Assembly (NCBI GenBank): GCA_963799485.1
Contig: CAWCXJ010000002.1
Span: 23,955 to 87,954, forward strand
Source: an uncultured Trueperaceae bacterium
GTDB lineage: Bacteria; Deinococcota; Deinococci; Deinococcales; Trueperaceae
Length of the DNA stretch: 64,000 bases
Direction: 5' to 3'
Shown: in pieces, positions 45,351 through 64,000 of the stretch
How positions within the stretch are numbered: the stretch's first letter is position 1
Layout of the letters: every line of letters starts with the position of its first letter
Notes under the pieces: model-generated
Told to the model about the DNA's origin: nothing
The model's database searches: none
What the model saw: the letters and a program-made list of their open reading frames with translations, nothing else
Program-made: the position numbers and the translations under genes

Positions 45351-46145
45351 TACTAGCAAACCGAGCGCATAGACTTATCAAATTGAGTGAAGAGGACGAT
45401 AGCAGGCTTAGAGCGATAGAGCAGAACCCTCACATGAATGCCAACGTACGTCTGCGCGCCCAGGTTCTGAGATTATCGAATAAGGCGATGGCGATAGAAA
45501 GTATCTCAGGCCATGTCGCCAGGAACTACGAAACCATCAGAAGAACGCTTGAACGCTGGGAACAAGAAGGCTACGCAGGTTTAGCCGACCATGACGAGGC
45601 ACCTGGACAAAAACCGGTTATTACCGACGACATCGAAAGCTTCCTAGCAGCGAAGCTGAAAGAAAGAACCTGGACATGTGAGCAACTCTCAGACGCGATA
45701 GTTCAGACCCACCAGGTAAAAGTCGGGCCTGAAGGTATTCGCAAACGCCTCAAAAAGATGGGCTACCGCTGGAAAAAAGGCCGCTTCGTACCTGCCAAAC
45801 GACCTGCCGAGGATGACCTCAAGCAGCATAAAGCAGCGTTGGAAACGCTAAAAAGGGGGCATTGGAGCAAAGGCTGAAGCTGCTTTATCTGGATCAGGTA
45901 GGCTTCAGCCTTGCGGCTCAAGCCCATCAAGACCTGGACACCTAAAGGCTCTGGCAGCCAGTTTGAGATTCCTTCGCGTCAGGGTTCGGTCGGTCGCTTA
46001 AACCTGATAGGGGCTCTGGACTTCGCTTCGAACAAACTTTTCTACCGGGACTTAGCAGGGAGTTGCGACGCGCTAAAGTGTGAGGCTTTCCTTGACAGAC
46101 TTGCTAAACAAGCCGACCCCGGAGGTTTAACGGTCGTGGTGCTTG

Positions 46146-46172
46146 GTCCGAGCGCAGCGAGAACACAACGTA
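46146..46172 (+). mobile_element. 27-nt in-frame micro-insertion type B
   Basis: Removing GTCCGAGCGCAGCGAGAACACAACGTA restores GTG CTT GAT AAT GCT (VLDNA). Confidence 0.8.
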
Positions 46173-46395
46173 ATAATGCTCGCTTTCATAAAGCCAAAAA
46201 TATCAGGGCCAAAGCGCCTGTTTGGCGAGAGAAGGGCTTGTTCCTTCGTTACCTGCCCCCTTACTCCCCACAGCTAAACCCCATTGAAACACTTTGGCGC
46301 GTCCTCAAAGGCTTTCTGCTTCCCAGACTTTTGTATGCTTCGCTCAAACACCTCAAAGACGCCGTCTTCGCCGCCCTTACCCTCTTAAATGCTGT

Positions 46396-47372
46396 GGCTC
46401 ATGTTCAGAGAAAGTGAATAAGCGGTTAAGATGAAGGCATGGACTTTCCGATAGATGAGCTGATGGATAGAGCAGCCTGCTTAGCGTGGTTAGCGAGGTA
46501 CTTTCATCCCGAAGGCGTGAGCTGTCCCCATTGCGAGGCACCCATTGAGGAAGCGGGCATCTTCCGCCGAACAAAGTCGAGTGAGTTAGAAGTCTACCGC
46601 TGTAAAGGGTGTCAAGGTATCTATAACTTGTACAGCGGGACAGTGTTCGAAGCACGTCACTTCCGCCCTGAACAGGTGGTGCTGTTTATCCGAGGGGTGG
46701 GTCAAGGGAAAGCGACGGCTCAGCTAGCAAGAGAGCTGCGTATGAGCCGCACCACCGCTACTGAGGTACGCCATTTGCTACAAGCAAATGCAGAGCGAGC
46801 ACAACCCCAAAGCAAGCTTGACGACGATGAAGCAGAAACCGACGAGATGTTTCAAAACGCGGGGGAAAAAAAGCGAACACCACCCCGACCCGGCAGACCC
46901 ACCGCGCAGACGGGCTAACAAGCGCCGTGGACGAGGCACCTACGCTAATGACCGTCCGCCTATCTGCGCTGTCATGGGACGCGCCTCGAAACAAGTCCGC
47001 ATCCGGGTCATGAAAAACACCCAAGGCAAAACGCTCTGTCCCTTTGTCGAAGCCTACACCCGCGAAGACGCCACGGTTTACACCGATGAGTACGACAGTT
47101 ACAACAGACTCGAACGGGTGCGCTTAACGGTTTGTCACAGCAAGCACGAATGGGCGCGTGATGAAAACGGTGATGGCATTCGTGAAGTTCATGTCAACGG
47201 CAATGAAGGGGGCTGGACGGGCTTGCGTAACTTCCTAAGACCTTTTCGAGGCGCTCATAAAAAGTACCTCTCAGGCTATGTCGCTATTCACGAAGCGGCT
47301 GTCAACTACAAGCGAGTTACCCCAGCTTTCGTCTCGGCTATGGTCGGCTCTCACTTATGTTGAACATGAGCC
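46396..47372 (+). mobile_element. IS1595-family element
   Basis: IRs ggctcatgttca.../...tgaacatgagcc; 8-bp TSD AATGCTGT; CPHC/CKGC zinc finger; GGGGGAAAAAAAG frameshift. Confidence 0.9.
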
Positions 47373-47434
47373 AATGCTGTTATCCTATAAGTTCAACTTG
47401 GATATACTTGAGGGGTGTGCAAGCTCACCTACTA

Positions 47435-48317
47435 ACCTCGGGTGCTAGTCGAACAGAAACAGGATGAGGTTGTGAGCCGCGACTTTGCGGCAGACACTGG
47501 CACGAATGCTCCAAAAAGAGTTGAGCTGTTGCAAGGCAATATTGCGACATCTTGCGAGTGAGGAGAAAACAGCCTCGACAGACTTTCTGGCACGAGCGAA
47601 GAAGTCACACCAGCAGCCGGGTTCTTTGGCGTTTTGCTTGGGTGGGGTGTAGATGCCTAAACCCTGATAGCCTTTGTCGCCGATGCTGCTGTTTAGGTCA
47701 TCGCCAGAAGCGTCCAAGCGACACTTGCCCACGGTGACATCACTTTCATTGGCTGGCACGATGGCAAAACGACAGCTAGCACCCTGACCCGTGCAAACGG
47801 CGTGAAGTTTAAAGCCGTAGAAGCGTTTGGTTGCCCCACCGCGTCCAGAGGTAGCTTCGGTCATCCTTCTTGGTCTTGGGTAGCGAACACCCTTGCAGAT
47901 AGGCAGCGGCTTGGAGTCGACCAGCTACACCCCATCATGCTGAGCAATCAGCATAGCTAAGTCCGCATAGATGCGTTCGAAGTTACGGCTCACTCGGTAA
48001 AAACGTGTGATATGAGGCAGGTCGGGGAACAAAGCGCCGTATTCACGCTGCACCAGCAAGTACCACAAGCCTTGATTTTTCTGCTGAAGTATCTCGCCGA
48101 CCAGAACAATGGTGAGCAACTCGGCGTAGCTGGATTTTTGTTGGCGCTTTTTAGGCAACTTGAAGCGTCCTAAGCGTTCTGAGGCTTGTAGATAGTCGTC
48201 TATCAGGACATATACGATTGTGAAAAGGTCTGTTACATTATGCTTTGAGAGAAGATCAACGGCTCGCATGACCTATCTTCTCTCATCTTTTACCCCTTTT
48301 CTACTAGCACTCGAGGT
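47435..48317 (-). mobile_element. IS982-family element, copy 1 (internal TAG)
   Basis: IR acctcg(a/g)gtgctagt; VDSKPLPIC, FYGFKLH, IGDKGY. Confidence 0.9.
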
Positions 48318-48416
48318 TATTAAATGTAATTGTCTTGTCGGAGGCTTTTGGGGGTGAAGTCGCTTCACGCGACGGCGATGTCTCGCTTTCGGGTAGTAAT
48401 GAACCGAGAACTGCCA

Positions 48417-49667
48417 TGAGGGGATCCCTAAGCTTGGGCCATTTCGGATGTGAGTCTAGGCAGGTGTAGCTTACCTGTTTCGAGGGCTTCTGCCAAGACA
48501 GCTTGGGGTGTCCGGTAGCCAAGTGCTCCGTGAGGTCGGTGTTCGTTATAGTCTTGCCGCCACTTTTCGCTTAGTACACGGGCTTCGGGGGTAGAGGTAA
48601 ATACTTCCAGGTTCAAGAGTTCATCCCGGAAACGGCTGTTGAAGCTTTCACAGTAACCGTACGGCAAAGCCTCGGCGCTGCGCTGAATTTGCCAGGGTGA
48701 GCCGGGGTCGATGTAAAGCGTTTTGATGGTAGCGTCGGTGACGAACTTTTGCAGTGTTTGGGCGATGAACTCGGGGCCGTTATCACAGCGGATGAAGCTG
48801 GGCGCTCCGTGCAGGGTGATAAGACGCTCGAGTTCGGTTACAACGTTATGGCTGGTCATATTGCGCTCGACCTTAATACTTAAACAGGAGCGAGAGAACT
48901 CGTCAATGACCGTTAAGAACTTGAGCCGTCCGCCACTTAAAGTCGTGTCCATGATGAAGTCAAGCGCCCAAACATGATGGGCGTATTCTGGTTTACGCCG
49001 GTGGCAGGCGTTCTCGCCATTACCCAAACGGGTTCGTTTATGCGTCCGGCTTGGCACCTTTAGTCCTTCAGCCCGCCATAGCCGCTGAACTCTCTTACGG
49101 TTCACGTGCCAGTGTTCTTCGTTAAGCTTGGCGGTGATCCGCCGATAGCCGTAACGGGGATGTTCCAAAGCTAGTTCGTGCAAGCGTTTAACCAGCACTT
49201 TGTCCTTCTCTATCCGTAGGGGCTGATATCGCTGCGTACTCCTAACTTGCCCAAGTACTCGGCAGATCCGCCGTTCGCTCACGCCCAGTTCGCGCCGGAC
49301 ATGAGTTACAGCGTCACGGCGCGTTCTGGGCGTTAGAACTTTGTTTTTAGTGCCTCCTTAAGAATATCGTTATCAAGGTCCTTCTCCGCCAGCAGTTTCT
49401 TCAGCCGGGCGTTTTCCTTCTCCAACTCTCTTAACTGCTTAGCATCGCTTTTCCCCATGCCACCGTACTTTTGCCGCCAGCGGTAAAAGCTCCACTCACT
49501 GATACCGAGGGTGCGACACGCCTCCGCCGCCGTCTTTCCCTGGTTAGTTGCCTTCTCGACGTTGCGGAGAATGTCGATGATCTGCTCGGGGGTATGAGTC
49601 TTTCGCATGGCCATTCCTCTCAGCCTGACTCACATTCCGCTTGGCTCAGGTTTCGGGGGTCACGTCA
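48417..49667 (-). mobile_element. IS3-family element, copy 1 (orfA 49333..49614, orfB 48428..49282)
   Basis: TG...CA ends; YGYRRI, WALDF, IRCDNGPEF; same translation as 62746..63996. Confidence 0.95.
48661..48687 (-). mobile_element. 27-nt in-frame micro-insertion type A
   Basis: Removing TTCAGCGCAGCGCCGAGGCTTTGCCGT restores PWQNGYCESFN. Confidence 0.85.
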
Positions 49668-50531
49668 TGGTCATCAAAGCCTCCGTCACCCAAGAGGACC
49701 TGCGTTTGTCCGGGTATAGAGGAGGCGAGTTGGTCTTTGAACACCTTGGCATCTTTGATGTTTGCCGGGGCAACGTCTACATCGCACGGTAAGGCGGCAG
49801 CTGTACAGCCGCTCACCAAGCAGTGAACACGGTAGCCATAAACCCACGTACCACAGCCGCTCTTACCCCAGTGCGCTTCTATATCGATATTGCCACATTT
49901 GGGCGACTCCCCTTTGTCACGTTGTTTCTTATGCCAGACGTTACCTTGAGCGTGCATCAGAGAAAAATCAACGCTCATGGCCTCAACAAGGGTGACATTC
50001 TCAGCCACAAAGTCAGCGTGGATGCTGCGAACTTGTTCCCGCAGGACTAAGGGCAGTTGCTTGAAGCGCCGACTCAAAATCGTTCTATGAGGGCAGCTTG
50101 TTAAGCTAAATTTCCCTAGCAGTTCCTCTTTGAGTCGCAACTGTTTTGCCAATGTTTTGAAGCCCTTGATACGCTTGACAAGCATGTACAGGTAAAGCTT
50201 CAGCATACTTCTGGTTGAATACTCGGTATGACCTGAAGCGGCTTGCAGCTCTAGCTCATCAACCATGTTCAGCAAGGTCTCTAAGTCTGGTGTTACCGTA
50301 TTTTGAGCCTTCGTTTTCTGGTTCATAGCATTTCTAGACTAACGAAGGCTCATCCCTTATTCACTGAGCTGGATTCTTATATGCACACCCCTCAAGTATC
50401 TAACAGCCTCGGGGACGTTACAGTCTTGTTAGCTAATGCGCTGGGTGGTACGTTTTTAGGGTGATAACTCGACAGCCTGCGCGTTACCTTCCCCTCAAAA
50501 ACAGTCTTCGTCACCTTGCAAGGCCTTAGCC

Positions 50532-51401
50532 GTGCAGACCACGCTTATCCAAAGAGGTCGTTCGCGTTCGTGGAACCGATTAAAACATAACTACCTCGGC
50601 CTCTTCGGTGCGGCTATCGTCACAGCGGTCGTTATCATCGCTCTTTTGGCTCCGCTCCTAGCACCTTACGATCCAGCAGAGCAGTTTTTTGAGGGCCTCA
50701 CACTTGAAGGTGCACCGTTGCCGCCCAACGGAAAGTTTCTTCTCGGCACCGACCTGCTTGGGCGCGACCTGCTCTCCCGCCTTGTCTACGGTGCGCGCGT
50801 TTCACTGGCTGTAGGCGTTATCGCTAACGTTGCCGCACTCTTGATTGGTACACTTCTAGGGACAGTTGCAGGCTACCTGCAGGGGTTTGTTGGCAGGCTC
50901 ATCATGCGTTTTACCGATGTAATGACGGCGTTTCCCGCACTTTTACTGGCAATCGCCCTAAGTGCTATCTTGCGTCCAAGTTTGTGGATTGTCGCGCTCG
51001 TTATCGCACTTGTCAACTGGGTTCAGATTGCGCGCGTCGTCTACGCACAGGTGCTTACGCTCGCCGAATCAGAGTTTGTAAGTGCAGCAGCGGCACTCGG
51101 CGCAAAGCGGGGTCGTATCTTGCTGCGCCACCTTGTTCCTCACCTTATTCCCACCATGCTCGTCTACGGGACGCTGGGCGTTTCTACAACTGTCTTGCTC
51201 GAAGCTACCCTTTCGTATCTAGGGGTCGGCGTGCAACCTCCGACGCCGAGCTGGGGCGGCATTATCAACGAGAGCCAGTCATACTTTTTAACCGCGCCTT
51301 GGCTCGTTACCTTTCCAGGTGCCGCGATCTTGCTCACTGCCGTGTCGTTTAACCTTGTCGGCGACGCCTTACGCGACGCCCTTGACCCGCGGAGCCGCTG
51401 A
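50532..51401 (+). CDS. Peptide/nickel ABC transporter permease (DppC-type)
   Basis: LGTDLLGRDLLSRLVYGARVSL; EATLSYLGVG..PP.PSWG. Confidence 0.95.
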   Translation: MQTTLIQRGRSRSWNRLKHNYLGLFGAAIVTAVVIIALLAPLLAPYDPAEQFFEGLTLEGAPLPPNGKFLLGTDLLGRDLLSRLVYGARVSLAVGVIANVAALLIGTLLGTVAGYLQGFVGRLIMRFTDVMTAFPALLLAIALSAILRPSLWIVALVIALVNWVQIARVVYAQVLTLAESEFVSAAAALGAKRGRILLRHLVPHLIPTMLVYGTLGVSTTVLLEATLSYLGVGVQPPTPSWGGIINESQSYFLTAPWLVTFPGAAILLTAVSFNLVGDALRDALDPRSR

Positions 51402-52321
51402 TGCTCGGCTACTTCGCCTCGCGCGTTTTGCAGACCGTTTTTGTCCTCTTAGGCGTGGCGACGGTCGCGTTTCTCATTACCAACCTTGTGCCCGCCGATC
51501 CCGCCCGGCTCCTGGCAGGGCGACAGGCAAGCACCGAGACGGTCGAGAACATCCGCACGCAGCTCGGCCTCGACCGGCCCCTCTATGAGCAATATGGGCG
51601 CTACGTGTCACGCCTGGCGCGGGGTGACTTGGGCCGCTCGTACAACCAGCGTACGGAGGTGCGGACGCTCCTTTTTTCGCGGCTGCCCGCCACCTTGCAG
51701 CTCACCGCTGGCGGCATCCTTGTAGAACTTCTTATCGGCGTGCCACTGGGTATTTTGGCCGCGCTTAGCGCCGGACGGCTTCTCGACCGGACAGTCATGC
51801 TCTTTTCATTCGTGGGCGTGTCCGCGCCGCAATTTGCGCTGGGCCTTATTCTCCTTTACGTAGTGGCCTACCGCTGGGCGCTGCTGCCGTTAGGCGGGTA
51901 CGGCAGCGTCGCGCACCTTGTGCTACCCGCCGTGACGCTCGGCATCTCCGGGGCCGGATGGTACGCTCGCGTCGTGCGCTCGGCGATGCTCGAAACGCTC
52001 CGGGCCGATTATGTCCGCACAGGCACGGCAAAAGGGCTACCGAGGCAGCGCGTCGTTCTCAAACACGCACTGCGCAACGCCCTTTTACCGGTTATCGCCA
52101 TGATCGGCCTTGATATCGGGCTTTTAATGGGCGGCGTGGTGGTTGTGGAGTCGGTATTTGGCTGGCCCGGTATCGGGCAGCTCGCTTGGCAAGCAATTCA
52201 GGTGCTCGACCTCCCGGTCATCATGGGCACCGTACTCTTAACCGCACTCTTTATTGTTCTCGGCAACTTTTTAGCGGACGTTCTCTACCCGCTTGCCGAC
52301 CCGCGTATTCGCTACGGGTAG
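51401..52321 (+). CDS. Peptide/nickel ABC transporter permease (DppB-type)
   Basis: LGLDRPLYEQY; DYVRT..AKGL; VESVFGWPGIG. Confidence 0.95.
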   Translation: MLGYFASRVLQTVFVLLGVATVAFLITNLVPADPARLLAGRQASTETVENIRTQLGLDRPLYEQYGRYVSRLARGDLGRSYNQRTEVRTLLFSRLPATLQLTAGGILVELLIGVPLGILAALSAGRLLDRTVMLFSFVGVSAPQFALGLILLYVVAYRWALLPLGGYGSVAHLVLPAVTLGISGAGWYARVVRSAMLETLRADYVRTGTAKGLPRQRVVLKHALRNALLPVIAMIGLDIGLLMGGVVVVESVFGWPGIGQLAWQAIQVLDLPVIMGTVLLTALFIVLGNFLADVLYPLADPRIRYG

Positions 52322-52371
52322 CTGGCATAGAATAGTTAAGAGCAGCTTATATGCTCATCGAAAGGGGAAGC

Positions 52372-53964
52372 ATGAAACGTTTGGGATTCGTGATTTTATG
52401 TATACTTTGCTCATTCGCGCTAGCACAGCAGCAGGGCGGGAACATGACTGTCACCTATAAGGATGACATCTCGACGCTCGACCCAGCCATCGGCTACGAC
52501 TGGCAGAACTGGTCGATCATTAAAAGCATGTTCGACGGACTTATGGATTACGAACCCGGCACCACGACCCTGAGGCCGCAGCTCGCCACCTCTTACGAGG
52601 TCTCTAAAGACGGCACCACCTACACCTTCAAGCTGCGTGAGGGCGTGCGCTTTCATAACGGACGCGAAATGCAAGCCGAAGACGTAAAATACTCGCTCGA
52701 GCGCACTCTGAACCCGGAGACGCGTAGCCCCGGTCAGGGCTTTTTTCTAGGTATCAGGGGCGCGCAAGCCTTTATCGACGGTCAAGCGGACGAGGTTACG
52801 GGCATCAAGGTGGTAGACCCGGCGACGGTCCAGATCACGCTCGACGAACCCAACGCCTCGTTTTTGCACCTTATGGCGATCAACTTCTCGTATGTCGTCC
52901 CGCGCGAGGAGGTCGAGCGCTACGGCGAGGACTTCGGTCGTAACCCGGTCGGTACGGGCGCGTTCAAAATGCGCGAGTGGCAGCTCGGGCAGCAACTCGT
53001 TTTAGAGCGCAACCCCGACTATTTCTTGGAGAACCTTCCCTACCTCGACGAGATCACCTTCGAGATTGGCGTAGAACCGACCGTCGCCCTTTTGCGGCTT
53101 CAGCGCGGCGAGGTGGACATTCTCGGCGACGGCATCCCGCCCGCGCAGTTCGTGAGCATTTCAGGCAATCCCGCCAACGAAGAGCTGATCGCCTCGGGGC
53201 CGCAACTCCACACTGGCTACGTGACACTTAACACCAACGTTGCGCCCTTCGACAATGTAAAGGTGCGCCAAGCGCTTAACATGGCTGTAAACAAAGAGCG
53301 CATCGTACAGGTCATTAACGGACGTGCCACTCCCGCGAACCAGCCCCTGCCCCCGCTCATGCCCGGTTACGCTGAGGATTATAAAGGCTACAGCTACGAC
53401 CCTGAAGGGGCCAAAGCGCTCCTTACCGAAGCGGGCTTTCCGGACGGCTTTTCCACCCAGCTCTACGCCAACAATACCGACCCGAATCCGCGCATCGCCC
53501 AGGCCATCCAGCAAGACCTAGCTGCTATTGGCATCGACGCAGAGCTGCGGACGCTCGCGCAGAGTGCGGTGATCGCCGCTGGGGGCGAGCCCGAGGGCGC
53601 GCCGATGGTTTGGTCAGGAGGCATGGCCTGGATCGCCGATTACCCCGACCCGAGCAACTTTTACTGGCCTATTTTGGGTTGTGCGGGAGCTGTCCAGGGC
53701 GGTTGGAACTGGGCTTGGTACTGTAACGAAAAGCTCGAGGCTCAGGCTGCAGAGGCGGACGCAATGGTGCAACCGGACCAAGAGGAGGCGCGCACCGAGC
53801 TGTGGCGAAATATCTACCTGAGCATCATGGAGGACGCGCCGTGGGTGCCCGTGTTTAACGAGACGCGCTACACCATGCATAGCGCCCGGTTAAAGGGGCC
53901 GGAGGGCGTCTTTATCGACCCCATCCACATCCCGGTAAACTACGAAAACGTTTATGTCGAGTAA
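52372..53964 (+). CDS. Family-5 ABC substrate-binding protein
   Basis: Signal peptide; YTFKLREGVRFHNG; PVGTGAF. Confidence 0.95.
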   Translation: MKRLGFVILCILCSFALAQQQGGNMTVTYKDDISTLDPAIGYDWQNWSIIKSMFDGLMDYEPGTTTLRPQLATSYEVSKDGTTYTFKLREGVRFHNGREMQAEDVKYSLERTLNPETRSPGQGFFLGIRGAQAFIDGQADEVTGIKVVDPATVQITLDEPNASFLHLMAINFSYVVPREEVERYGEDFGRNPVGTGAFKMREWQLGQQLVLERNPDYFLENLPYLDEITFEIGVEPTVALLRLQRGEVDILGDGIPPAQFVSISGNPANEELIASGPQLHTGYVTLNTNVAPFDNVKVRQALNMAVNKERIVQVINGRATPANQPLPPLMPGYAEDYKGYSYDPEGAKALLTEAGFPDGFSTQLYANNTDPNPRIAQAIQQDLAAIGIDAELRTLAQSAVIAAGGEPEGAPMVWSGGMAWIADYPDPSNFYWPILGCAGAVQGGWNWAWYCNEKLEAQAAEADAMVQPDQEEARTELWRNIYLSIMEDAPWVPVFNETRYTMHSARLKGPEGVFIDPIHIPVNYENVYVE

Positions 53965-54883
53965 CCACACCATTCATAGGCACCACGCTCACTACGGCTG
54001 GGACAACGCGCTGGAACCGGTGCTCGAGGTTACTCCCGGTGAAACCATTACGTTTGAGACAGTAGACTCTTCTGGTGGGCAGCTGAGCCCAGCCTCGACG
54101 GTCGAGAGTGTCGCCGCGCTCGACTTCTCCAAAGTCAACCCGGTCACCGGGCCAGTGCGTATTTTAGGTGCGGAACCGGGCGACGCGCTCAGCGTCAAGG
54201 TTCGTGAGTTTAGACCGAGCGGCTGGGGCTGGACGGCGAACATTCCTGGCTTCGGCCTGCTCACCGAAGACTTTAGAGACCCGCACCTTAAGCTGTGGAG
54301 CTTTGAAGGCGACGTTGCCGAGTTTGCCGACGACATCCGGGTGCCCCTTAAGGCGTTCCCTGGCACCATCGGGCTCGCCCCAGCTGAGATGGGTCTCCAT
54401 AGCGTCGTGCCGCCCAGGGTGTGCGGCGGCAACATGGACACCCGCGACCTCGGGGCGGGCACAACGCTCTTTCTTCCCGTTCAGGTTTCGGGAGCACTCT
54501 TTTCGGTCGGCGATACACACGCGGCTCAAGGGGATGGCGAGGTCTGCGGCACGGCTATCGAGTCGCCGATGGAAGTGACGCTTCAGTTTGACCTTCTTAA
54601 AGAGGCAAATCTGGGTGCGCCACAGTTTCAGACACCCGGTCCCGTCACACGGCATCTCGATAGTAAGGGCTATTACGTGACGACAGGGGTCGGCCCCGAC
54701 CTCATGGAAGCTTCTAAAGACGCCGTGCGCGCCATGATTGAGTACCTTAGCAAACACTACGGCCTTTCACCCGAAGACGCTTACTTGCTATGCAGCGTCG
54801 GCTGCGACCTCCGCATCAGCGAGATCGTCGATATGCCCAACTGGGTTGTGTCGCTCTATCTGCCGCTACAGCTTTTCGCTTAA
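53954..54883 (+). CDS. Acetamidase/formamidase family protein
   Basis: NPVTGP..I.GAEPGD; GGNMD; GDTHAAQGDGEVCGTAIE. Confidence 0.95.
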   Translation: MSSNHTIHRHHAHYGWDNALEPVLEVTPGETITFETVDSSGGQLSPASTVESVAALDFSKVNPVTGPVRILGAEPGDALSVKVREFRPSGWGWTANIPGFGLLTEDFRDPHLKLWSFEGDVAEFADDIRVPLKAFPGTIGLAPAEMGLHSVVPPRVCGGNMDTRDLGAGTTLFLPVQVSGALFSVGDTHAAQGDGEVCGTAIESPMEVTLQFDLLKEANLGAPQFQTPGPVTRHLDSKGYYVTTGVGPDLMEASKDAVRAMIEYLSKHYGLSPEDAYLLCSVGCDLRISEIVDMPNWVVSLYLPLQLFA

Positions 54884-54884
54884 A

Positions 54885-54931
54885 GCAACCCTTACAGGGT
54901 TTTGTAAAAAACAAAGCCCTGTAAGGGTTGC
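54885..54931. repeat. Long palindrome (21-bp arms, one mismatch), REP-like
   Basis: gcaacccttacagggttttgt-aaaaa-acaaagccctgtaagggttgc. Confidence 0.8.
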
Positions 54932-54989
54932 CTCAGCAAGTTTATGGACGCGGCCACGACTGTAGCTGCGCTGCTTCGAACGGCTACCT

Positions 54990-55280
54990 ATGCGCCTGTT
55001 TATCGCCCTCAACATACCCAGCGACCTGCGCGCCCGCATCGCCAGAGACGTACTTACGCCGTTGCAAGCGCAACTCCCCGGCGCGCGTTGGGTGCAAAGT
55101 GAGACGCTGCACGTCACGCTGCCTTTCCTGAGGGAGCGCAGCCACGCCGAGGCCGAGGAAGCTAAAGCTGTTTTGCAGGAGGTTGCGACCACGCAAGAGC
55201 CGTTTTCAGCTTCCCTAAGCGGACCCGGCGTGTTTCGTCCGGCGCGTCCACGCGTCATCTGGCTGGGTCTTAAGGGTTTA
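54990..55280 (+). pseudogene. thpR: RNA 2',3'-cyclic phosphodiesterase, 3' truncated
   Basis: MRLFIAL...LHVTL.FL...PRVIWLG; second HxT motif missing. Confidence 0.75.
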
Positions 55281-55334
55281 GTTCCAATCCTCCTACACTG
55301 CGCCTTGGAGCGCGAGCATGACCAGCTCGGCACT

Positions 55335-55722
55335 GGCCTTGGTCTATAACTTTGGACAGCCGAAGTATACCCTAAGCTGCTAGCCGAGCCAAATCTTCCG
55401 GCAATTGCTTGAGGCGCTCGAAGGTTTCCGGGGTCTCGTAATTGAGTGAACTGTGTAGCCGTTCGCAGTTGTAGTAAATCTCGATAAACTCGAAGGTCGC
55501 AGCGCAAGCCTCAGCGCGGGTCGTAAAGCGTTCCCGAGGATAGACCAACTCTCTCTTGAGCGTCGCCCAGAAGCTTTCGATGACCGCATTGTCGAAGCAG
55601 GCTCCTTTACCCGTGAAGCTTGGCAGCATCCCCCGAGCCGTGAGCTTTGTGCCGTAGAGGTGGCTAGTGTATCGACTACCCCGATCCGACTGGTGGATGA
55701 CACGCCTTTTGCACGCCAGCAA
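55335..55722 (-). mobile_element. IS3-family (IS150-like) 3' fragment
   Basis: HQSDRGSRY...CFDNAVIESFWATLKRE...RLHSSLNY. Confidence 0.85.
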
Positions 55723-55769
55723 GTCGGCACGTCACCTCCTTAAAGGCTCGGTCATCGTCCCAAGGTCCG

Positions 55770-56767
55770 TGATGCGACCCGTGGTAAGCCGACCGGCGAA
55801 CCCGCAAGTTATCAGCGAGGCCGTCCGCGAGGCTGCCGGGGCAAAGCCAGCAGGCACCTCCCCACGCCCAACCTCTCCCCTTCCCGCCATACCGCAGCTC
55901 GAGATCACCTCAGCCTCCACACGCAACCACGCTCAGAGCAAACCAGGACCCGCGCCTAGCACGCGGCACTTCTCCGACCCCCGCCTCCACGAACTCAGAC
56001 ATGCCAGCAGCGCAAAAAAGCGCCAGGCGGCGGCCCTAAAGCACCCGAAGCTGCGGCCTCCACATGACGCCTTGGCCTATCACGAGAACACCACACTCGA
56101 GCTTGCCTACTGGCAGGGACTCACCTACCGGGAGGTCGGTGAGAAGCTCGGCTTTTCGTCGAACCGAGCTTTGCAGATCTGCAACAAGGCGCTACGCAAG
56201 CTCACGTATCAGTTGCTTAAAGGCGCGCGTCCCGGCACAGCCATACATGAATCACGCAACCCGTCCTGTGACCCGCACCACGACAAGCTCGGCGAGGACA
56301 TGCTCACCACAAACGCGCTTTCTCCCCAAGCCGTGGTTCTGGGTGAGGACACCCGCATCACTGCGCTCCGCAGGATGGGACAAGCCGAGAAAAGGCGGGA
56401 GGTGGCCCGGCGCTACCCTGAACTCCGCCCGCCCCATGCTTGCCTGAGCGACGACGAGAACGACCTGCTCGAGCTAAGTCTCTGGCAGGCGCGAACCTAC
56501 GGCGAGACCGCCAGCCTTAAGAGTCTCTCCCGAAGGCAGGTCAGTACAGGTGTTCGTCACGCGCTCAAAAAGCTCAACTGGCACCTGTGCAGAGAGTCTC
56601 ACCATCACGAAGATCACCTCGATGCGGTTCTTTTGGCACTGAACGAGTGCGGCTCGGTGAGGCGGGCTGCGAAAAAGCTTGAGGTGTGCAAGTACGTGCT
56701 CAACGCCTTTATGGAACGTGTGGGCATAAGAGCCCGCACTGTGTTCGAGGTCGACACGGGCGAGTAA
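55770..56767 (+). CDS. Protein with two tandem sigma70 region-4-like HTH domains plus C-terminal HTH (start uncertain)
   Basis: GLTYREVGEKLGFSSNRALQICNKALRKL and ARTYGETASLKSLSRRQVSTGVRHALKKL; GSVRRAAKKL. Confidence 0.6.
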
Positions 56768-56841
56768 CACCACTGAAAGACGCACGTGCCGCGCACTCTG
56801 CCCCTTGAGGCTTGGGCCTCCTATACTGTAGGCACCAAAAG

Positions 56842-57345
56842 GAGGTAGACGTGACGACCCAGGTACAGCTCACTACAGCCGACGAACTCCTCCGGATGCA
56901 GGGCGACGGCTACCGCTACGAGCTAGTAAGGGGGGAGCTGAAGAAGACGGCACCCGCAGGATTTGAACATGGCACGCTTGCGGTCGAGTTCGCTGCTGAG
57001 CTGAGGAACTTCGTGAAAGCGAACAAGCTCGGCAGAGTCACCGCCGCTGAGACCGGCTTCAAGCTCACCACGAACCCCGACACCGTCCGCGCTCCCGACA
57101 TCGCTTTCGTCAGCCAGAAGCGTTTAGACGAGGTAGGCCCCGTGCAAGGCTACTGGCCCGGTGCGCCCGACCTGGCCGTCGAAGTCGTCTCCCCCAACGA
57201 CCTCTACACCGAAGTGAGCGACAAGGTGGCCGAGTGGCTGGAAGCGGGCTCCAAGGTGGTCGTGGTCATCAACCCGCGCAGGCGGCAAGTCTTCGTCCAC
57301 GCTCCCGATGTCGATGTAAAGGTGCTGGGGATAGACGATACGCTC
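56842..57345 (+). pseudogene. Uma2-family endonuclease, C-terminus truncated
   Basis: RYELVRGEL...APDIAFV...APDLAVEVVSPND; AGGAGG RBS. Confidence 0.85.
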
Positions 57346-57355
57346 ATTGCTATTT

Positions 57356-58238
57356 ACCTCGAGTGCTAGTAGAAAAGGGGTAAAAGATGAGAGAAGATAG
57401 GTCATGCGAGCCGTTGATCTTCTCTCAAAGCATAATGTAACAGACCTTTTCACAATCGTATATGTCCTGATAGACGACTATCTACAAGCCTCAGAACGCT
57501 TAGGACGCTTCAAGTTGCCTAAAAAGCGCCAACAAAAATCCAGCTACGCCGAGTTGCTCACCATTGTTCTGGTCGGCGAGATACTTCAGCAGAAAAATCA
57601 AGGCTTGTGGTACTTGCTGGTGCAGCGTGAATACGGCGCTTTGTTCCCCGACCTGCCTCATATCACACGTTTTTACCGAGTGAGCCGTAACTTCGAACGC
57701 ATCTATGCGGACTTAGCTATGCTGATTGCTCAGCATGATGGGGTGTAGCTGGTCGACTCCAAGCCGCTGCCTATCTGCAAGGGTGTTCGCTACCCAAGAC
57801 CAAGAAGGATGACCGAAGCTACCTCTGGACGCGGTGGGGCAACCAAACGCTTCTACGGCTTTAAACTTCACGCCGTTTGCACGGGTCAGGGTGCTAGCTG
57901 TCGTTTTGCCATCGTGCCAGCCAATGAAAGTGATGTCACCGTGGGCAAGTGTCGCTTGGACGCTTCTGGCGATGACCTAAACAGCAGCATCGGCGACAAA
58001 GGCTATCGGGGTTTAGGCATCTACACCCCACCCAAGCAAAACGCCAAAGAACCCGGCTGCTGGTGTGACTTCTTCGCTCGTGCCAGAAAGTCTGTCGAGG
58101 CTGTTTTCTCCTCACTCGCAAGATGTCGCAATATTGCCTTGCAACAGCTCAACTCTTTTTGGAGCATTCGTGCCAGTGTCTGCCGCAAAGTCGCGGCTCA
58201 CAACCTCATCCTGTTTCTGTTCGACTAGCACCCGAGGT
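57356..58238 (+). mobile_element. IS982-family element, copy 2 (same internal TAG)
   Basis: Near-identical inverted copy of 47435..48317. Confidence 0.9.
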
Positions 58239-58280
58239 TATAAAGGAGCTGTTCGAAAGCTAGCCGGAAGTGTCGATGCT

Positions 58281-58305
58281 CGAGCCCCCACACGGGGGCT
58301 TTTTC
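58281..58305 (+). terminator. Intrinsic terminator-like hairpin
   Basis: agccccc-acac-gggggct + TTTT. Confidence 0.6.
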
Positions 58306-58313
58306 GTCGTTGG

Positions 58314-60253
58314 TGTGTATTTCATCATAAATTGACCGCCGAATGGCTCTTACGAAAGTTTTGTGGTAGATGTAGATGCATCGGGACTTGAAACCTAGCG
58401 GTGCAGCTAGCAGCATAGAGGATGCTTGACATCCTTTTCCCAGGTTGCATCGTTGAAATGTTCGAAATCCACGAGCAAGGCTTGGTGCTCACGGCTCGGT
58501 CAAACAAAACGGCGGCGAGGTGCCCAGTATGTGGGGTGACGTCAGCGAAGGTAAGCGGCTACTACCGACGGCATCCTCACGATTTGCCCCTGGCTGGTCA
58601 CCTGACCAAGTTTTGCCTGAAAGTTAAACGGTTCTACTGTTTGAACCATAGCTGTACGAGAACGACGTTTGCGGAATCTTTCGACCCCTGGTTAGCACGT
58701 TACGCCCACAGGAGCGGACGCCTGAGCGATACCCAAAGCTACGTCGCTGTGATGCTGAGTGCCAAAGCCAGTGAAGACCTGCTCGAGAAGTTAGCGATAC
58801 CCGTGAGCCACGACACAGCCCTCAATCTCGTTTGTAAAAGAACCGCAGTGCCACAAGGTACGCCACGGGTGCTAGGCGTCGATGATTTCGCTCTCCGAAA
58901 AAGGGAAACCTATGGCACCTTACTGCTGGACTTAGAGACACACAAGGTGGTGGACGTTTTACCCGACAGAACCTCGGCTACACTTATAAGCTGGCTAAAG
59001 GCCCACCCTGGGATCGAGGTTATCTCGAGAGACCGCTCTCAGGAGTACAAATCCGCTTGTGACGAGGGCGCACCCGAGGCCGTCCAGGTCGCTGACCGCT
59101 GGCATCTACTCAAAAACTTCAGCGATCTCTTGAAGCGTTGGTTCGAGCGCCACAAGAAATACCTCGTTGAGCCTCTGCCAGACGGCGAGTTCGCAACTGG
59201 TGCCGAAATGCCACGCCAGCTGCGCGCCCGCACCAGCTATGAGAGAGCGCTGCAAGCCAAGCTCGAAACGCGCCGCAAACGGCAAACAACCTTTGAAACG
59301 GCTAAGCGTCTGAAAGCGGAGGGTTTTAGCCTGTCCACCATCGCGGCCAAACTCGGCGTCGGCAGGAGTACCTTGAGCCGTTGGTTCGCCCAAGGCACTT
59401 ATGCCAATAAGCAGCGCAGTCGCATCCTCGAAGCCTATCGACCCTATCTCAGACAAAGGTGGGAAGCGGGCATAAGTAACAAGATGCAGCTTTACCGGGA
59501 GATTATGGCGCAAGGATTTACCGGTGCCTACGGACTCGTCTACGCCTACTTCGCCGAGCTAGAAGCTGGGATTGGGCTTTTGAGTGCGAGCAAGAAGCAA
59601 AACGTTCAACGCTATTCGGCGTACGAGGCGACCCGGTTATTCACACGTCAACGAGCTACGTTAAATCGGCACGAGATCAGACGGCTCGAGCAACTCTTCA
59701 AGAATGTGAAGGAGGCTGAGCTTTGCTATGAGCTGGCGCAACGCTTCGTGTTCTTGTTTGAGCAGGAGCAAGCACCCGAGCAGACCCTCGCGGCGTTTGA
59801 CCGTTGGCTCAAAGACACCATAAATAGTGGCATCGACGAACTTGCCCGCTTGGCAAAGGGCTTTAGTAACGACAGGCTCGCTATCGGAGCGGCTTTAACC
59901 CTGCCCTGGAGCAACGGTCCGACGGAAGGTAAAATTACTAGGCTCAAACTTCTGAAGCGGCAAATGTACGGACGAGCCAGCTTTGATCTACTTAGACAAA
60001 AGGTGCTTCTTGCGGCCTGACCACAAAACTTTCGTAAGAGCCAGCTAATTTTACCGAACTTGACCACTGTTTTACCGAATTTGACCACCTCAAGCTGAGG
60101 CGCAAGACACTCTAGCGACAGGCCGACAATAAGGCATGTCTAGAAAGCGAGCGTCAATGCGAAAGGTCAAAGAAATCCTGCGGTTACGCCATGCCTGCGG
60201 ACTGAGTGAGCGGCAGATCGCCCAGAGCTGCAACCTCAGCAAAGGCAGTGTCA
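58314..60253 (+). mobile_element. IS21-family left end and istA 5' fragment, split by ISL3
   Basis: Repeated ttttaccgaaYttgaccac motifs at ~60047-60088; MRKVKEILRL...GLSERQIA. Confidence 0.7.
58345..60042 (+). mobile_element. ISL3-family element A (transposase 58422..60020)
   Basis: Perfect IR ggctcttacgaaagttttgtgg; GVDDFA, RDR, ADRWH, SNGPTEG. Confidence 0.95.
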
Positions 60254-60577
60254 TACTCATTCCGGCTAAATCCCTAATCAAACGAGGGGCCACCAGTGAA
60301 AGAGGGTGTGCTGGGAGATGAGGTCAGGTTGGGTACGCAAGTAAGCGCAGCGTTTGGAGAGGACCGCTTGCAGGTCGTCAAGGGTGTCGAACACACGGTT
60401 AGCAAGGGGTTCGTCGGAGAGGTTACACAGACGTTGGGCAGGTTGCAACTCTGGCGAGTAGGGGGGCAGAAAGAGTAGTTCTACCCCTTCGGGAACGCGC
60501 AACTTACCGCTGGTATGCCAACGGGCTTGGTCCAGCACCAGGAGCATAGCATGGTCTTTAGCCGCGCCCAGGTCGTG
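60254..60577 (-). mobile_element. IS630-family 3' fragment
   Basis: VLDQARWH...FLPPYSPELQPA; TA at end. Confidence 0.8.
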
Positions 60578-60596
60578 TGAGGGGACCCCTATACCT

Positions 60597-62298
60597 GGTT
60601 CTCCCGCGCTTTTGATGAACTTCATTTGTCGAGCGGTTACAACCAACGACATGACACCCCTACCTTGGCTAGCTGATCCCGATGTGCTCGAGTTGAGAAG
60701 CGTCGTTTCAGAACAGAAAAACGTCACCTTGCTCATTCGTTATACCCAAGCCGCCAGCTGCTGCCCAGGCTGTAGGCAGGCATCGCCCCATGTCCATAGT
60801 CGGTACCAGCGTTTCCCCGATGATCTTCCTTGGCAAGGCGTGCGCGTGACACTCAAGCTGAGCGTTCGGAGGTTCTTCTGCCGCAACGCGAGCTGTGAGC
60901 GCCGCATCTTCTGCGAACGCCTCGACCACGTGCTCACCCCCTATGCGCGGCAGACGCTCCGGCTAGTCGAGACCCTACAGGCTATAGGCTTCGGTCTTGG
61001 CGGGGAGGCGGGTACTCGCACTGCCCGCTTGCTCGGCATCTCCAGCAGCGCCGACACGCTTTTGCGTCGTGTCCGGCAAAGCCGCATTCCGGCGGTCGAA
61101 GCGCCGCGGGTGATTGGTGTAGACGATTGGGCCTACCGCAAAGGCGAACGCTACGGCACCTTGATCGTCGACCTTGAGCGGCGCACGCCCATCGAACTTC
61201 TGCCGGACCGCGAAGCCGACACGCTCACAGCGTGGCTTAAAGCTCACCCGAGCATCGAGATCGTCGCGCGCGACCGCGCCTCGGCGTATGCCGACGCCGC
61301 CCACCGCGGTGCCCCCCAGGCGGTGCAAATCGCCGATCGGTGGCATTTGCTGAACAACCTCCAGGAAGCTGCGCAGCGCTTTCTCACCCGGCAGAGCCAG
61401 CTGCTCAAGCAAGCGAGCAACGAAACGCGAGTGGCGCAGGCAGAGGCGATCCCGTTCTCGCGGGGGTCGCTGCTCGCCTCGGCAACGCTAGCGCGGCGTC
61501 AGGAGAACAGAGCTAAACGCGAGCGCCTCTACGAGGAGATGCTGAGTCTGCACCAGCAGGGCAAGTCTCAGTGTCGCATCGCCCGGGAACTGGGCGTGAG
61601 CCGCGGCCGCGTGGTGGCCTACCTGCGGGAAGGCGTTCCCGACGGAGCGCGGGTTCGGCGCGGCAGCATCCTCGATCCCTACCTGCCGTACCTCCACCGC
61701 AGGTGGCTCGAGGGCTGTCGGGGAGCCGTGTCGCTCTTTCGTGAGCTCAAGGCGCGAGGCTACCCGGGCGGTAGCGGCATGGTCAAGCGCTATGGCAAAA
61801 ACTTGCGTAAGCGCCTGGCCGTCATGACGGCCCAAGAGCAGCGCCACTTTCTGGAGGCCACGGCGCAGTTTAAAGCGCCGTCCGTGCGCCGGGCCGCGTG
61901 GTGGCTGTTGGAGGACGAGCAGGAGCTCGGCAAGAAACAGCAGGTGTTTCTGAAAGAGCTGGGACAGCTACGTCCTGAGATCGTGCGGTTCCGGCAGCTT
62001 GGACTCGACTTCAAACGCATGGTGCGAGAACGCGACGCCGATGCGCTTGTTGCCTGGCTTGAGGAAGCAGAGGCGGGCGGCGTGCAGGAGCTGAAGGGTT
62101 TCGCCTTCGGCATTCGGAAAGACCTCGCGGCGGTAACGGCGGCGCTTTGCTTTGAGTGGAGCAACGGCCAGACGGAAGGCCAGATCAACCGCCTGAAGAT
62201 GCTCAAGTGGCAGATGTTCGGACGAGCCAACTTCGATCTGCTGTGAGCTCGGGTGCTGCACGCGGCCTGAGCCGTGTCATCAAAAGCGCGGGAGAACC
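60597..62298 (+). mobile_element. ISL3-family element B (transposase ~60651..62246, premature TGA near end)
   Basis: IR ggttctcccgcgcttttgatga; 8-bp TSD CTATACCT. Confidence 0.95.
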
Positions 62299-62531
62299 CT
62301 ATACCTGGGCCAGTTTGGATGTGAGTCTAGGCGTCTGTAGTTTAGTCGTTTTGAGTGCTTGATCCAATACCTGTTTCGGTGTTTGATAGCCGAGTGCTCC
62401 GTGAGGTCGGTGTTCGTTGTAGTCTCGTCGCCACTGTTCGCTTAGTACACGTGCTTCGAGGGTAGACGTGAACACTTCCAGGTTCAGGAGTTCGTCGCGG
62501 AAACGCCCGTTGAAGCTTTCGCAATAGCCGT

Positions 62532-62558
62532 ACGGCAAAGCCTCGGCGCTGCGCTGAA
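62532..62558 (-). mobile_element. 27-nt in-frame micro-insertion type A in diverged IS3
   Basis: Identical to 48661..48687 although flanking codons differ. Confidence 0.85.
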
Positions 62559-62745
62559 TTTGCCAGGGCGAGCCGGGGTCGATGTAAAGGGTTTCAACGG
62601 TGGCGTCTGCAAGAAACCGCCGTGTGGCTTGGGCGATGAACTCAGGGCCATTGTCGCAGCGGATGAACATGGGCGATCCATGCATGGTGATGAGGCGCTC
62701 GAGTTCACCTCTCACGTCGTAGCTGGTCAGGCTGCGCTCGACCTT

Positions 62746-63996
62746 TGACGTGACCCCCGAAACCTGAGCCAAGCGGAATGTGAGTCAGGCTGAGAGGAAT
62801 GGCCATGCGAAAGACTCATACCCCCGAGCAGATCATCGACATTCTCCGCAACGTCGAGAAGGCAACTAACCAGGGAAAGACGGCGGCGGAGGCGTGTCGC
62901 ACCCTCGGTATCAGTGAGTGGAGCTTTTACCGCTGGCGGCAAAAGTACGGTGGCATGGGGAAAAGCGATGCTAAGCAGTTAAGAGAGTTGGAGAAGGAAA
63001 ACGCCCGGCTGAAGAAACTGCTGGCGGAGAAGGACCTTGATAACGATATTCTTAAGGAGGCACTAAAAACAAAGTTCTAACGCCCAGAACGCGCCGTGAC
63101 GCTGTAACTCATGTCCGGCGCGAACTGGGCGTGAGCGAACGGCGGATCTGCCGAGTACTTGGGCAAGTTAGGAGTACGCAGCGATATCAGCCCCTACGGA
63201 TAGAGAAGGACAAAGTGCTGGTTAAACGCTTGCACGAACTAGCTTTGGAACATCCCCGTTACGGCTATCGGCGGATCACCGCCAAGCTTAACGAAGAACA
63301 CTGGCACGTGAACCGTAAGAGAGTTCAGCGGCTATGGCGGGCTGAAGGACTAAAGGTGCCAAGCCGGACGCATAAACGAACCCGTTTGGGTAATGGCGAG
63401 AACGCCTGCCACCGGCGTAAACCAGAATACGCCCATCATGTTTGGGCGCTTGACTTCATCATGGACACGACTTTAAGTGGCGGACGGCTCAAGTTCTTAA
63501 CGGTCATTGACGAGTTCTCTCGCTCCTGTTTAAGTATTAAGGTCGAGCGCAATATGACCAGCCATAACGTTGTAACCGAACTCGAGCGTCTTATCACCCT
63601 GCACGGAGCGCCCAGCTTCATCCGCTGTGATAACGGCCCCGAGTTCATCGCCCAAACACTGCAAAAGTTCGTCACCGACGCTACCATCAAAACGCTTTAC
63701 ATCGACCCCGGCTCACCCTGGCAAATTCAGCGCAGCGCCGAGGCTTTGCCGTACGGTTACTGTGAAAGCTTCAACAGCCGTTTCCGGGATGAACTCTTGA
63801 ACCTGGAAGTATTTACCTCTACCCCCGAAGCCCGTGTACTAAGCGAAAAGTGGCGGCAAGACTATAACGAACACCGACCTCACGGAGCACTTGGCTACCG
63901 GACACCCCAAGCTGTCTTGGCAGAAGCCCTCGAAACAGGTAAGCTACACCTGCCTAGACTCACATCCGAAATGGCCCAAGCTTAGGGATCCCCTCA
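62746..63996 (+). mobile_element. IS3-family element, copy 2 (orfA 62799..63080, orfB 63131..63985)
   Basis: Inverted twin of 48417..49667. Confidence 0.95.
63726..63752 (+). mobile_element. 27-nt in-frame micro-insertion type A
   Basis: TGG CAA A|TTCAGCGCAGCGCCGAGGCTTTGCCGT|AC GGT TAC. Confidence 0.85.
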
Positions 63997-64000
63997 CCAG

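Follow-up and report, generated by a model that had tools for sequence, protein, structure and literature searches.

The window examined here is a stretch of 64,000 nt from an uncultured bacterium of the Trueperaceae (Deinococcota), and corresponds to G000:C2:23955-87954 of its own genome, G000, a 3.66-Mb assembly in 15 contigs. Among its genes are transposase genes of the insertion sequence (IS) families IS630 and IS3, and within their open reading frames (ORFs) are four inserts of 27 nt each, which are the subject of this report. One, in the IS630-family gene, is termed type A, and the other three, in IS3-family genes, type B1 (Table 1). They are candidate micro-elements, that is, mobile repeats of very small size.

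Inserts in the transposase genes of the window

As the sequence-only reading of the window had held, the four inserts are in frame and, on direct reading, none has a duplicated flank. Type A is translated as VVVL[GPSAARTQR]NNARFH and type B1 as PWQ[IQRSAEALP]YGYCESFN, the square brackets enclosing the inserted residues. That exact removal restores the family motifs, VLDNA in IS630 and PWQNG in IS3, was also claimed, and translation confirms it: with type A deleted, the reading is gtg ctt g|at aat gct (VLDNA; the bar marks the point of insertion) and deletion of type B1 gives tgg caa a|ac ggt tac (WQNGY, within PWQNGY). The features said to be common to the two types, namely length, a core and CGTA at the 3′ junction, are there on reading; the core is AGCGCAGCG, and the CGTA is within type A and crosses the junction as CCGT|a for type B. 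This 9-mer occurs seven times in the window against 2.1 expected, a number reached in 0 of 100 shuffles, and three of the seven occurrences are outside any insert.

Table 1. Positions of the 27-nt inserts and of the transposase genes that contain them
Feature	Position in window	Strand	Description
Type A micro-element	46146-46172	+	27 nt, GTCCGAGCGCAGCGAGAACACAACGTA; splits the g|at codon of the presumed second catalytic Asp, IS630-family transposase
Type B1 micro-element	63726-63752	+	27 nt, TTCAGCGCAGCGCCGAGGCTTTGCCGT; in IS3-family OrfB
Type B1 micro-element	48661-48687	-	27 nt, exact reverse complement of 63726-63752; in IS3-family OrfB
Type B1 micro-element	62532-62558	-	27/27 identical; in diverged, truncated IS3 relative
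IS630-family transposase gene hosting type A	45275-46417	+	Two ORFs, 45275-45877 and 45911-46417
IS3-family (IS407-like) element with B1	48417-49667	-	1,251 bp; one of six near-identical genome copies
Second window copy of the 1,251-bp IS3 with B1	62746-63996	+
Truncated, diverged IS3 OrfB, 157 aa	62299-62772	-	Cut off by the main IS3 copy inserted at 62746

Alignment with homologs, which the earlier reading had pointed to as the way to define empty sites, provides them for both types. An IS630 paralog with 75% identity, at G000:C7:481430-482390, has a clean 27-nt gap, GTGCTTG|ATAATGC. Had the inserts been ordinary loops, distant homologs might have been expected to carry the same extensions; 80 IS3 loci of other taxa were fetched, and 0 of the 47 with a readable motif carry extra residues (the remaining 33, in which the motif pattern was unmatched, are outside the count). 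The closest of the fetched loci, from a Truepera metagenome-assembled genome, is 76% identical and empty. At the protein level, with the best 120 homologs among 5.8 billion proteins, 96 of the 97 IS3 homologs that bear the motif are empty and the sole filled one is the window's own cluster. These sequence comparisons support the view that the four inserts are discrete micro-elements and not ordinary protein loops.

In contigs assembled from four metagenome runs the organism's own contigs keep the insert, one of them spanning 62746-63998 with zero differences, and there is no contig joint that skips exactly 27 nt. In run X4 a contig representing other organisms' IS3 homologs bridges 62529-62641 by 84 letters versus 111, and loose ends start at or beside the insert boundary.

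On the host genes themselves, Pfam finds DDE_3 on the C-terminal IS630 ORF (E 4.9e-19), and rve, rve_3 and HTH_21 on an identical copy of the 1,251-bp IS3. The diverged IS3 protein is 74% identical to that of the main copy and nearer to empty homologs, and the flanks of its B1 are 82% identical to those in the main copy. The 1,251-bp IS3, called active, is inserted at 62746 into its own diverged relative, both having an identical 27-nt insert. The IS630 gene is frameshifted between its two ORFs, near AAAAAGGGGG. Related copies in the congener G001 and on G000:C7 have the same split as this one (window 45840-45880); it may be a programmed frameshift site instead of a lesion. Elsewhere in the window, a 26-nt segment at 59601-59626 (G000:C2:83555-83580), inside a 532-aa transposase ORF at 58422-60020, recurs inverted 263 nt upstream in two 96–98% identical copies of that IS at other places in the genome (G000:C6:714215 and G000:C9:158871), while the window copy is without this recurrence. 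Such an arrangement resembles a templated inverted micro-duplication, of a length that three does not divide.

A dispersed and modular family

The genome as a whole was searched by mismatch-tolerant scans with translation of the contexts; the seeds came from IS genes, and the scans themselves were blind to context. Near-identical 27-mers are found in unrelated genes of G000, and five families of micro-element can be distinguished: A, B and C27, of 27 nt each, D36 of 36 nt (12 codons) and E42 of 42 nt, the last three having been revealed by comparison of IS paralogs. With lengths that are all multiples of three (27, 27, 27, 36 and 42), the elements are translated and so persist within ORFs. They occupy 22 distinct insertion sites in G000, of which 19 are in transposase ORFs, one is in the topoisomerase I gene topA and two are unassigned, in a genome whose repeated DNA amounts to no more than 7.75%. 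The association with transposases that had been proposed from the window therefore holds for 19 of the 22 sites in G000, but not for topA nor for related genomes, where copies are mostly intergenic.

The topA site documents movement. There G000 has a clean 27-nt type A insert, translated as GPSEARTQR, which is absent from 10 of 10 other genomes aligned; in five congeners, 74–90% identical over an aligned segment of 210 aa, the site reads GAGCA(A/G)G|A(A/G)GGC with nothing between. Since the insert is found only in G000, the element moved in this lineage and housekeeping genes can be entered. The initial remark that no insert of this sort is seen in housekeeping genes was right for the window and fails genome-wide. 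An explanation of the topA copy as synonymous drift was dropped, the orthologs showing recent insertion of a variant subfamily. The insertion point is a loop of naturally varying length. A further filled and empty pair comes from two IS1 copies that are 95% identical and differ by a 36-nt D element. Judged from these alignments, the elements are mobile and not confined to transposases.

The host transposases in G000 belong to IS630, IS3, IS1, IS4-like, IS701 and IS21 elements, six of the host ORFs being confirmed by Pfam and the rest assigned by reading of motifs. The Pfam matches over host ORFs are DDE_3, rve, DDE_5, DDE_Tnp_IS1, an IS21-type rve with Mu-transpos_C_2, topoisomerase I and, in the relative G025, Transposase_mut. 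Type A is found, apart from the window and topA, in a second and very different IS630 at the same Asp codon (QIVIL|DNYSIHT), with 26 of 27 nt identical. Type B is in seven IS3 copies, in IS1 InsB and a putative IS1 InsA, in a DDE_5 (IS701-type) transposase, and in an IS4-like transposase immediately after the Glu of RWQIE, where it breaks the E-x6-K spacing. It is also in IstA of IS21, as VVVP[GQLCAEAKPS]NLKAGV where homologs have PDNLK (49 of 49 homologs matched by the pattern, among 150 listed, the other 101 being unmatched by it). Two type B sites are in an IS3 remnant; this inverted pair, G000:C13:448312/448570, was considered as the ends of a miniature transposable element with inverted repeats (MITE) and rejected, the two being separate inserts. 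D36 occurs in two other IS630 subfamilies, as WLNM[..]AEIE and LN[..]LIE, two residues before the presumed catalytic Glu, and also in IS1 InsA, and E42 is also in the second IS630 element, the one with type A at the same Asp codon.

A context-unbiased search for short repeats with unrelated flanks recovered B, D36, E42 and F26 among the larger families, beside fragments of IS ends. Over-representation of 14-mers in G000 disclosed no high-copy family. The most frequent words of the genome in that count are 14-mers that contain GCTCGAGC, an XhoI-site palindrome, which may be highly iterated in the manner of the cyanobacterial HIP1. Further short inserts were encountered, one of 24 nt (GGTTCGCTGATGCGACCAGCTCTG-like) in the IS630 copy L114 of G001 and one of 42 nt (GTGAGCATCGCAGATGCAATGCGC..) in the IS1 copy at G000:C9:89000-89700.

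Relatives of the bacterium reveal how the repeats are built. Type B consists of a 5′ module, N-TCAGCG-N-AGCGCCG, and a 3′ module, GGC-NNN-GCCGT, and type A matches the inner module (GCCCGAGCGAAGCGAG..GAGAAC) of longer forms in the relative G023. GCGNAGC is present in both A and B, and variation is concentrated at the N of this core and at the NNN of GGC-NNN-GCC. The longer units of G023, of ~41 and 75–85 nt, are composed of the 5′ module, GCCCGAGCGAAGCGAG.., ..GAGAAC.. and GCGAAGCCGT, and they show types A and B to be pieces of one modular repeat. Counts of the 14-nt 5′ module across 121 genomes of the family (a tally that takes in G061, on which nothing rests) are 36 in G023, 21 in G064, 14 in G000, 9 in G083 and 8 in G025, with most others at 0–3 and controls at 0–2; the module is common in a few genera and at background in the rest.

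The settings of the copies differ from genome to genome. All seven 27-nt type B copies of G025 are in an IS256-family transposase, and G001 has type A at the same codon in three IS630 copies. The copies of G023 are mostly intergenic, one being in a signal peptide, and lepA has 27-mers in tandem upstream of it. The 5′ module of G064 is embedded in an intergenic, MITE-like repeat, within which it is found pointing either way. A metagenome scan yielded 34 exact matches in ~22 contexts, among them an IS1634-like transposase, an IS3 OrfB filled at the same F|YN site as the remnant in G000, and a putative IS1 InsA (identified by motif reading, not Pfam); tandem arrays are present in metagenome contigs also. 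Viral contigs gave 0 matches to the type A and type B patterns. Rfam has nothing at gathering score in the window and, in four repeat-rich loci of relatives, only a sub-threshold chance match to AsrC (21.8 bits versus a gathering score of 111). The elements range over one bacterial family, probably Trueperaceae-like Deinococcota.

Other features of these relatives were met with on the way. In G001 (L107, L111) the type A IS630 copy is part of a duplication that extends over at least 3 kb, its two copies being 99.9% identical and both having a Y1 transposase gene ~2.6 kb off. In G023 (L122, L127, L133) a TACTTGAATAC motif, in 2–4 repeats, is just upstream of several genes beside micro-repeats. 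The MITE-like repeat of G064 (L191-L210) is ~150 nt long, in ~20 copies, and both its central CCGCGG..CCGCGG hairpin and its arms are found in the two possible orientations versus the embedded GTCAGCGNAGCGCCGAG module.

Reuse of single codons and consequences for the host transposase

The proposal that insertion is directed to conserved codons is borne out by the finding that exactly the same transposase codons have been reused in IS lineages that are not sisters, as judged by trees and by the approximately unbiased (AU) test. Of 120 IS630 homologs, nine have GPS-x-ARTQR, all at that one codon. These nine belong to two subfamilies that are ~50% identical, and x, which is A, V, G, K or E, is encoded at the variable base of the core. 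In a tree of 99 of these proteins (21 shorter than 135 aa, one of them filled, having been dropped) the eight filled ones require eight changes, the mean with shuffled states being 7.8. A maximum likelihood tree of one subfamily (33 proteins, five filled) requires five changes, of which its starred branches force at least three; the filled proteins form one clade in 0 of 200 bootstrap trees, and a single clade is rejected by the AU test (log-likelihood difference 64, p-AU 0.00013).

The same pattern is evident for IS3 and IS1. In G000 the two IS3 lineages with B1 have 74% identity to one another, and each is 87–88% identical to empty homologs; they are not sisters, and the starred branches force at least two changes. 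IS1 copies are a mosaic of filled and empty at five sites or more. One of these sites, CCTGATGA|ACACCACC, is occupied by D in two lineages with 76% identity between their flanks and by an A-like element in another, and it is vacant in a copy 95% identical to a filled one. In every one of the 18 comparable pairs of diverged IS copies, identity is 88–100% for the insert versus 58–82% for the 300-nt flank (Fisher p 7e-5 to 7e-3). For the IS630 gene against its relatives, synonymous divergence (dS) is 1.6–1.8 and the ratio of nonsynonymous to synonymous divergence (dN/dS) 0.08–0.10; 0–1 differences are seen in the insert, as against the ~7 in 27 that we estimate for the age at which the hosts separated. 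No flanking direct repeats able to drive slippage are present at the IS630 and IS1 sites. Scattered trees together with conserved inserts imply repeated precise gain, or loss, at one codon, and either way a precise active process is required.

The consequences for the host protein are not uniform. Type A converts what we take to be the second catalytic Asp of the IS630 transposase to Gly..Asn, and the IS21 copy is likewise without the Asp to which we ascribe that role. On the sequence of these motifs, the IS630 and IS21 copies concerned are probably inactive. The suggestion that the inserts disable transposons does not extend to IS3: the 1,251-bp IS3 with B1 is present as six copies, 99.8–100% identical, at different loci with unrelated flanks, no empty copy of it is in the genome, and B1 accordingly did not stop its spread. 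An AlphaFold2 model of the IS3 protein (mean pLDDT 76) puts B1 in a loop of residues 195–209 with pLDDT below 50, between a strand and the ESFN helix, the surrounding core being confident; the underlying alignment is gapped at this loop, which itself lowers model confidence there. B1 would, on this model, widen a flexible loop ahead of the catalytic Glu of IS3 transposase and be tolerated, given that the IS3 kept spreading. A general disabling role is argued against by the spread of IS3 and by this predicted loop placement, and is not supported for IS3.

Explanations, precedents and meaning

The account we consider probable takes the four inserts for copies of minute mobile repeats, non-autonomous and family-wide, that prefer certain sites. 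Insertion is seamless at all sites read, which have neither target duplication nor terminal inverted repeats, and removal may be equally precise. The element would move as structured single-stranded DNA, and a trans-acting enzyme with marked site preference would handle the single strand. The excess in IS genes would then reflect a real target preference, and IS genes would in addition be DNA where inserts do not harm the host, are amplified and are carried between genomes. The core shared by A and B is pertinent here, as PMC13037366 describes GCGNAGC as an extraordinarily stable DNA mini-hairpin.

Several observations count against this account. In nearest-neighbor DNA folding the elements do not outscore their shuffles (z +1.9 to −1.9), with only 3-bp stems predicted, so that the hairpin idea draws on the positions of variation and on published chemistry. 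No mobilizing gene could be linked to the elements, nor could a donor array, a recombinase or a reverse transcriptase: G000 has seven Y1_Tnp matches, of IS200-type, but the ends of its Y1 elements are unrelated to the repeats, and whether a genome has Y1 genes bears no relation to its number of repeats (in G023 an IS605 element is followed closely on its 3′ side by B-like repeats, which proves nothing). No target consensus is readable from the flanks, which leaves the exact reuse of codons unexplained. The 5′ flanks vary (CAAA, CAAC, CGAA, CCTG, CCCG, CAGC and others), reading for complementarity between element and flanks gave none that is convincing, type A enters at G|A in three of three host genes, and only the C27, D36, E42 and topA sites have GAYGAR upstream. 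As to the comparisons, the 18 pairs of insert and flank are not mutually independent; the other filled IS630 homologs are represented by peptide, from which the element is inferred; and not all copies are unusually conserved, the insert in IS1 InsA at G000:C9:105126 having diverged by six of 27 bases. Repeated precise loss of an old insert under constraint at the nucleotide level accounts for the trees no less well than repeated gain.

The inserts could instead have spread by homing, a break at or close to an empty IS site being mended from a filled copy of a related IS, in the way that introns and inteins spread. This would explain inserts in the most conserved DNA, that of catalytic motifs, with many sites at or a few codons from presumed catalytic residues (for IS21, PDNLK was checked in the 49 homologs), as well as the filling of one site in non-sister lineages within one genome, as in IS3 and IS1. 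We think it unlikely. Flanks differ within 2–5 nt of the insert boundaries with no visible co-conversion tract, donor and recipient would be only 58–82% identical, and entry into unrelated IS families and topA needs a route independent of homology. A filled IS3 and an empty one 81% identical to it (clusters P0002 and P0062) moreover appear to coexist in another assembly, as inferred only from their having the same longest contig of 152,554 nt. An old insert, selected for its nucleotides and cut out exactly from mRNA or from the DNA of some cells with restoration of the catalytic codon, i.e. a removable micro-intron or DNA switch, would account for a host dN/dS of ~0.09 where type A destroys the codon for catalytic Asp, for inserts far more conserved than saturated synonymous sites with variation confined to presumed loop bases, and for the exact 36-nt difference of the 95%-identical IS1 pair in which there is no flanking repeat to drive slippage. 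It is nonetheless quite unlikely: bacteria are not known to have machinery that splices inserts of 27 nt, no motif is common to the boundaries, purifying selection may predate recent insertions, the scattered trees would need many more losses than gains, and six filled and zero empty IS3 copies argue against excision from DNA before transposition. Ribosome hopping cannot rebuild g|at either (translational bypass, for which the take-off and landing codons are mismatched, was rejected as a candidate since a hop cannot rebuild the Asp codon).

That a host defense, or a hyperparasite of IS elements, writes cassettes into catalytic transposase codons to silence them would agree with 19 of 22 sites being in transposase ORFs when repeated DNA is at most 7.75%, with IS630 and IS21 being deprived of their second catalytic Asp, and with loss of the E-x6-K spacing in IS4. 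The multiplication of the B1-bearing IS3 to six copies, the targeting of topA and of many intergenic sites in relatives, and the failure to find an associated gene or donor array make it very unlikely. Lineage-specific loops or slippage products inherited by descent and similar by chance have a negligible claim. Nine-residue variation in loop length is common in proteins, and the topA site is in such a loop, but identical 27-mers are in unrelated genes where, by our estimate, chance would provide ~0.01 per genome at five mismatches or fewer, homologs are without the inserts, and monophyly of the filled IS630 proteins is rejected; this reading is already refuted.

A bolder form of the site-preferring mobile repeat is conceivable, though doubtful. 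Dedicated trans-acting machinery would recognize the catalytic-motif DNA of DDE transposases, for example at the second Asp's G|AY for IS630 and IS21 and beside the Glu for IS3, IS4, IS1 and IS630, write short structured cassettes of 27–42 nt there and perhaps erase them exactly; the cassettes would then be hyperparasites of IS elements or reversible on/off switches.

Small dispersed repeats (SDR) of heterocyst-forming cyanobacteria, reportedly described by Elhai et al. in 2008 (Genome Res 18:1484), are said to be of 21–27 nt and in several families, with their mechanism open since. They are the closest known kind, and the likeness to them drawn from the window holds up in size, dispersal, nesting and lack of duplication. 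A unit of ~21–27 nt in several families recurs here in A, B and C27, dispersal that is sometimes tandem recurs in the arrays of G023 (upstream of lepA) and of metagenome contigs, homologous sites both filled and empty and free of target duplication recur in topA, IS630 and IS1, and nesting in larger repeats recurs in the MITE-like repeat of G064. The differences are that the present elements are in another phylum (the relatives searched are one non-cyanobacterial family), with sequences that are presumably unrelated to SDR1-8, that they have a strong excess in transposase ORFs and statistically supported reuse of one exact codon, and that families of 36 and 42 nt travel beside those of 27 nt. 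Cyanobacterial SDR are touched on in PMC2884548 and PMC3116915.

Other precedents are more distant. Rickettsia palindromic elements are, according to PMC10969869, selfish repeats that are in frame within genes and translated as added peptide segments. Being in frame and translated is the only feature in common: those elements are ~150 bp (100–150), palindromic and in unrelated metabolic genes, whereas the present ones are 27–42 nt, non-palindromic and, in G000, almost only in transposase genes. MITEs are unlike them too, since neither terminal inverted repeats nor target-site duplication were seen at the sites read. Transposition of IS200/IS605 elements by 'peel and paste' is seamless insertion and excision of a single strand, with no duplication and no inverted ends. 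Very short structured repeats are common to the present elements and to this group with the repetitive extragenic palindromes (REP), and seamless single-strand movement would fit the anatomy described above. REPs are, for their part, extragenic, clearly palindromic and flank a REP-associated tyrosine transposase (RAYT) gene, while the copies in G000 are intragenic with 3-bp stems and have no GTAG or CGTC tag at their ends; unlike miniatures of IS200/IS605, they have no fixed 4–5-nt target immediately 5′, the 5′ flanks being variable. Background on REP and REPIN with RAYT, and on IS200/IS605, is given in PMC3116915 and PMC3733652.

The elements resemble mobile introns and inteins in being at the most conserved sites of gene families, in recurring in non-sister lineages and in their patchy presence. 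Mobile introns and inteins home into conserved catalytic motifs, and group II introns home into elements of the IS630 family. The difference is one of capacity, as 27–42 nt can neither encode nor fold into known splicing or homing apparatus, and every known ribozyme or intein is far longer than 27 nt, or 9 aa. As far as can be told from open-access text, recurrence to the exact codon in transposase genes is undescribed, and we know of no transposition, homing or repair pathway that explains seamless, site-faithful insertion of 27 nt.

These elements would rank among the smallest mobile DNA units known. Their placement is non-random, the same 27-mer being in the catalytic Asp codon of IS630 in several lineages, which we regard as independent, and sister elements being beside catalytic residues elsewhere. 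The genome family offers pairs of filled and empty sites, relatives with high and with zero copy number, and a clean recent event in topA, with which the question becomes testable. Should the activity of transposases be modulated by the cassettes, a new layer would be added to the mutual restraint of bacterial genomes and their transposons.

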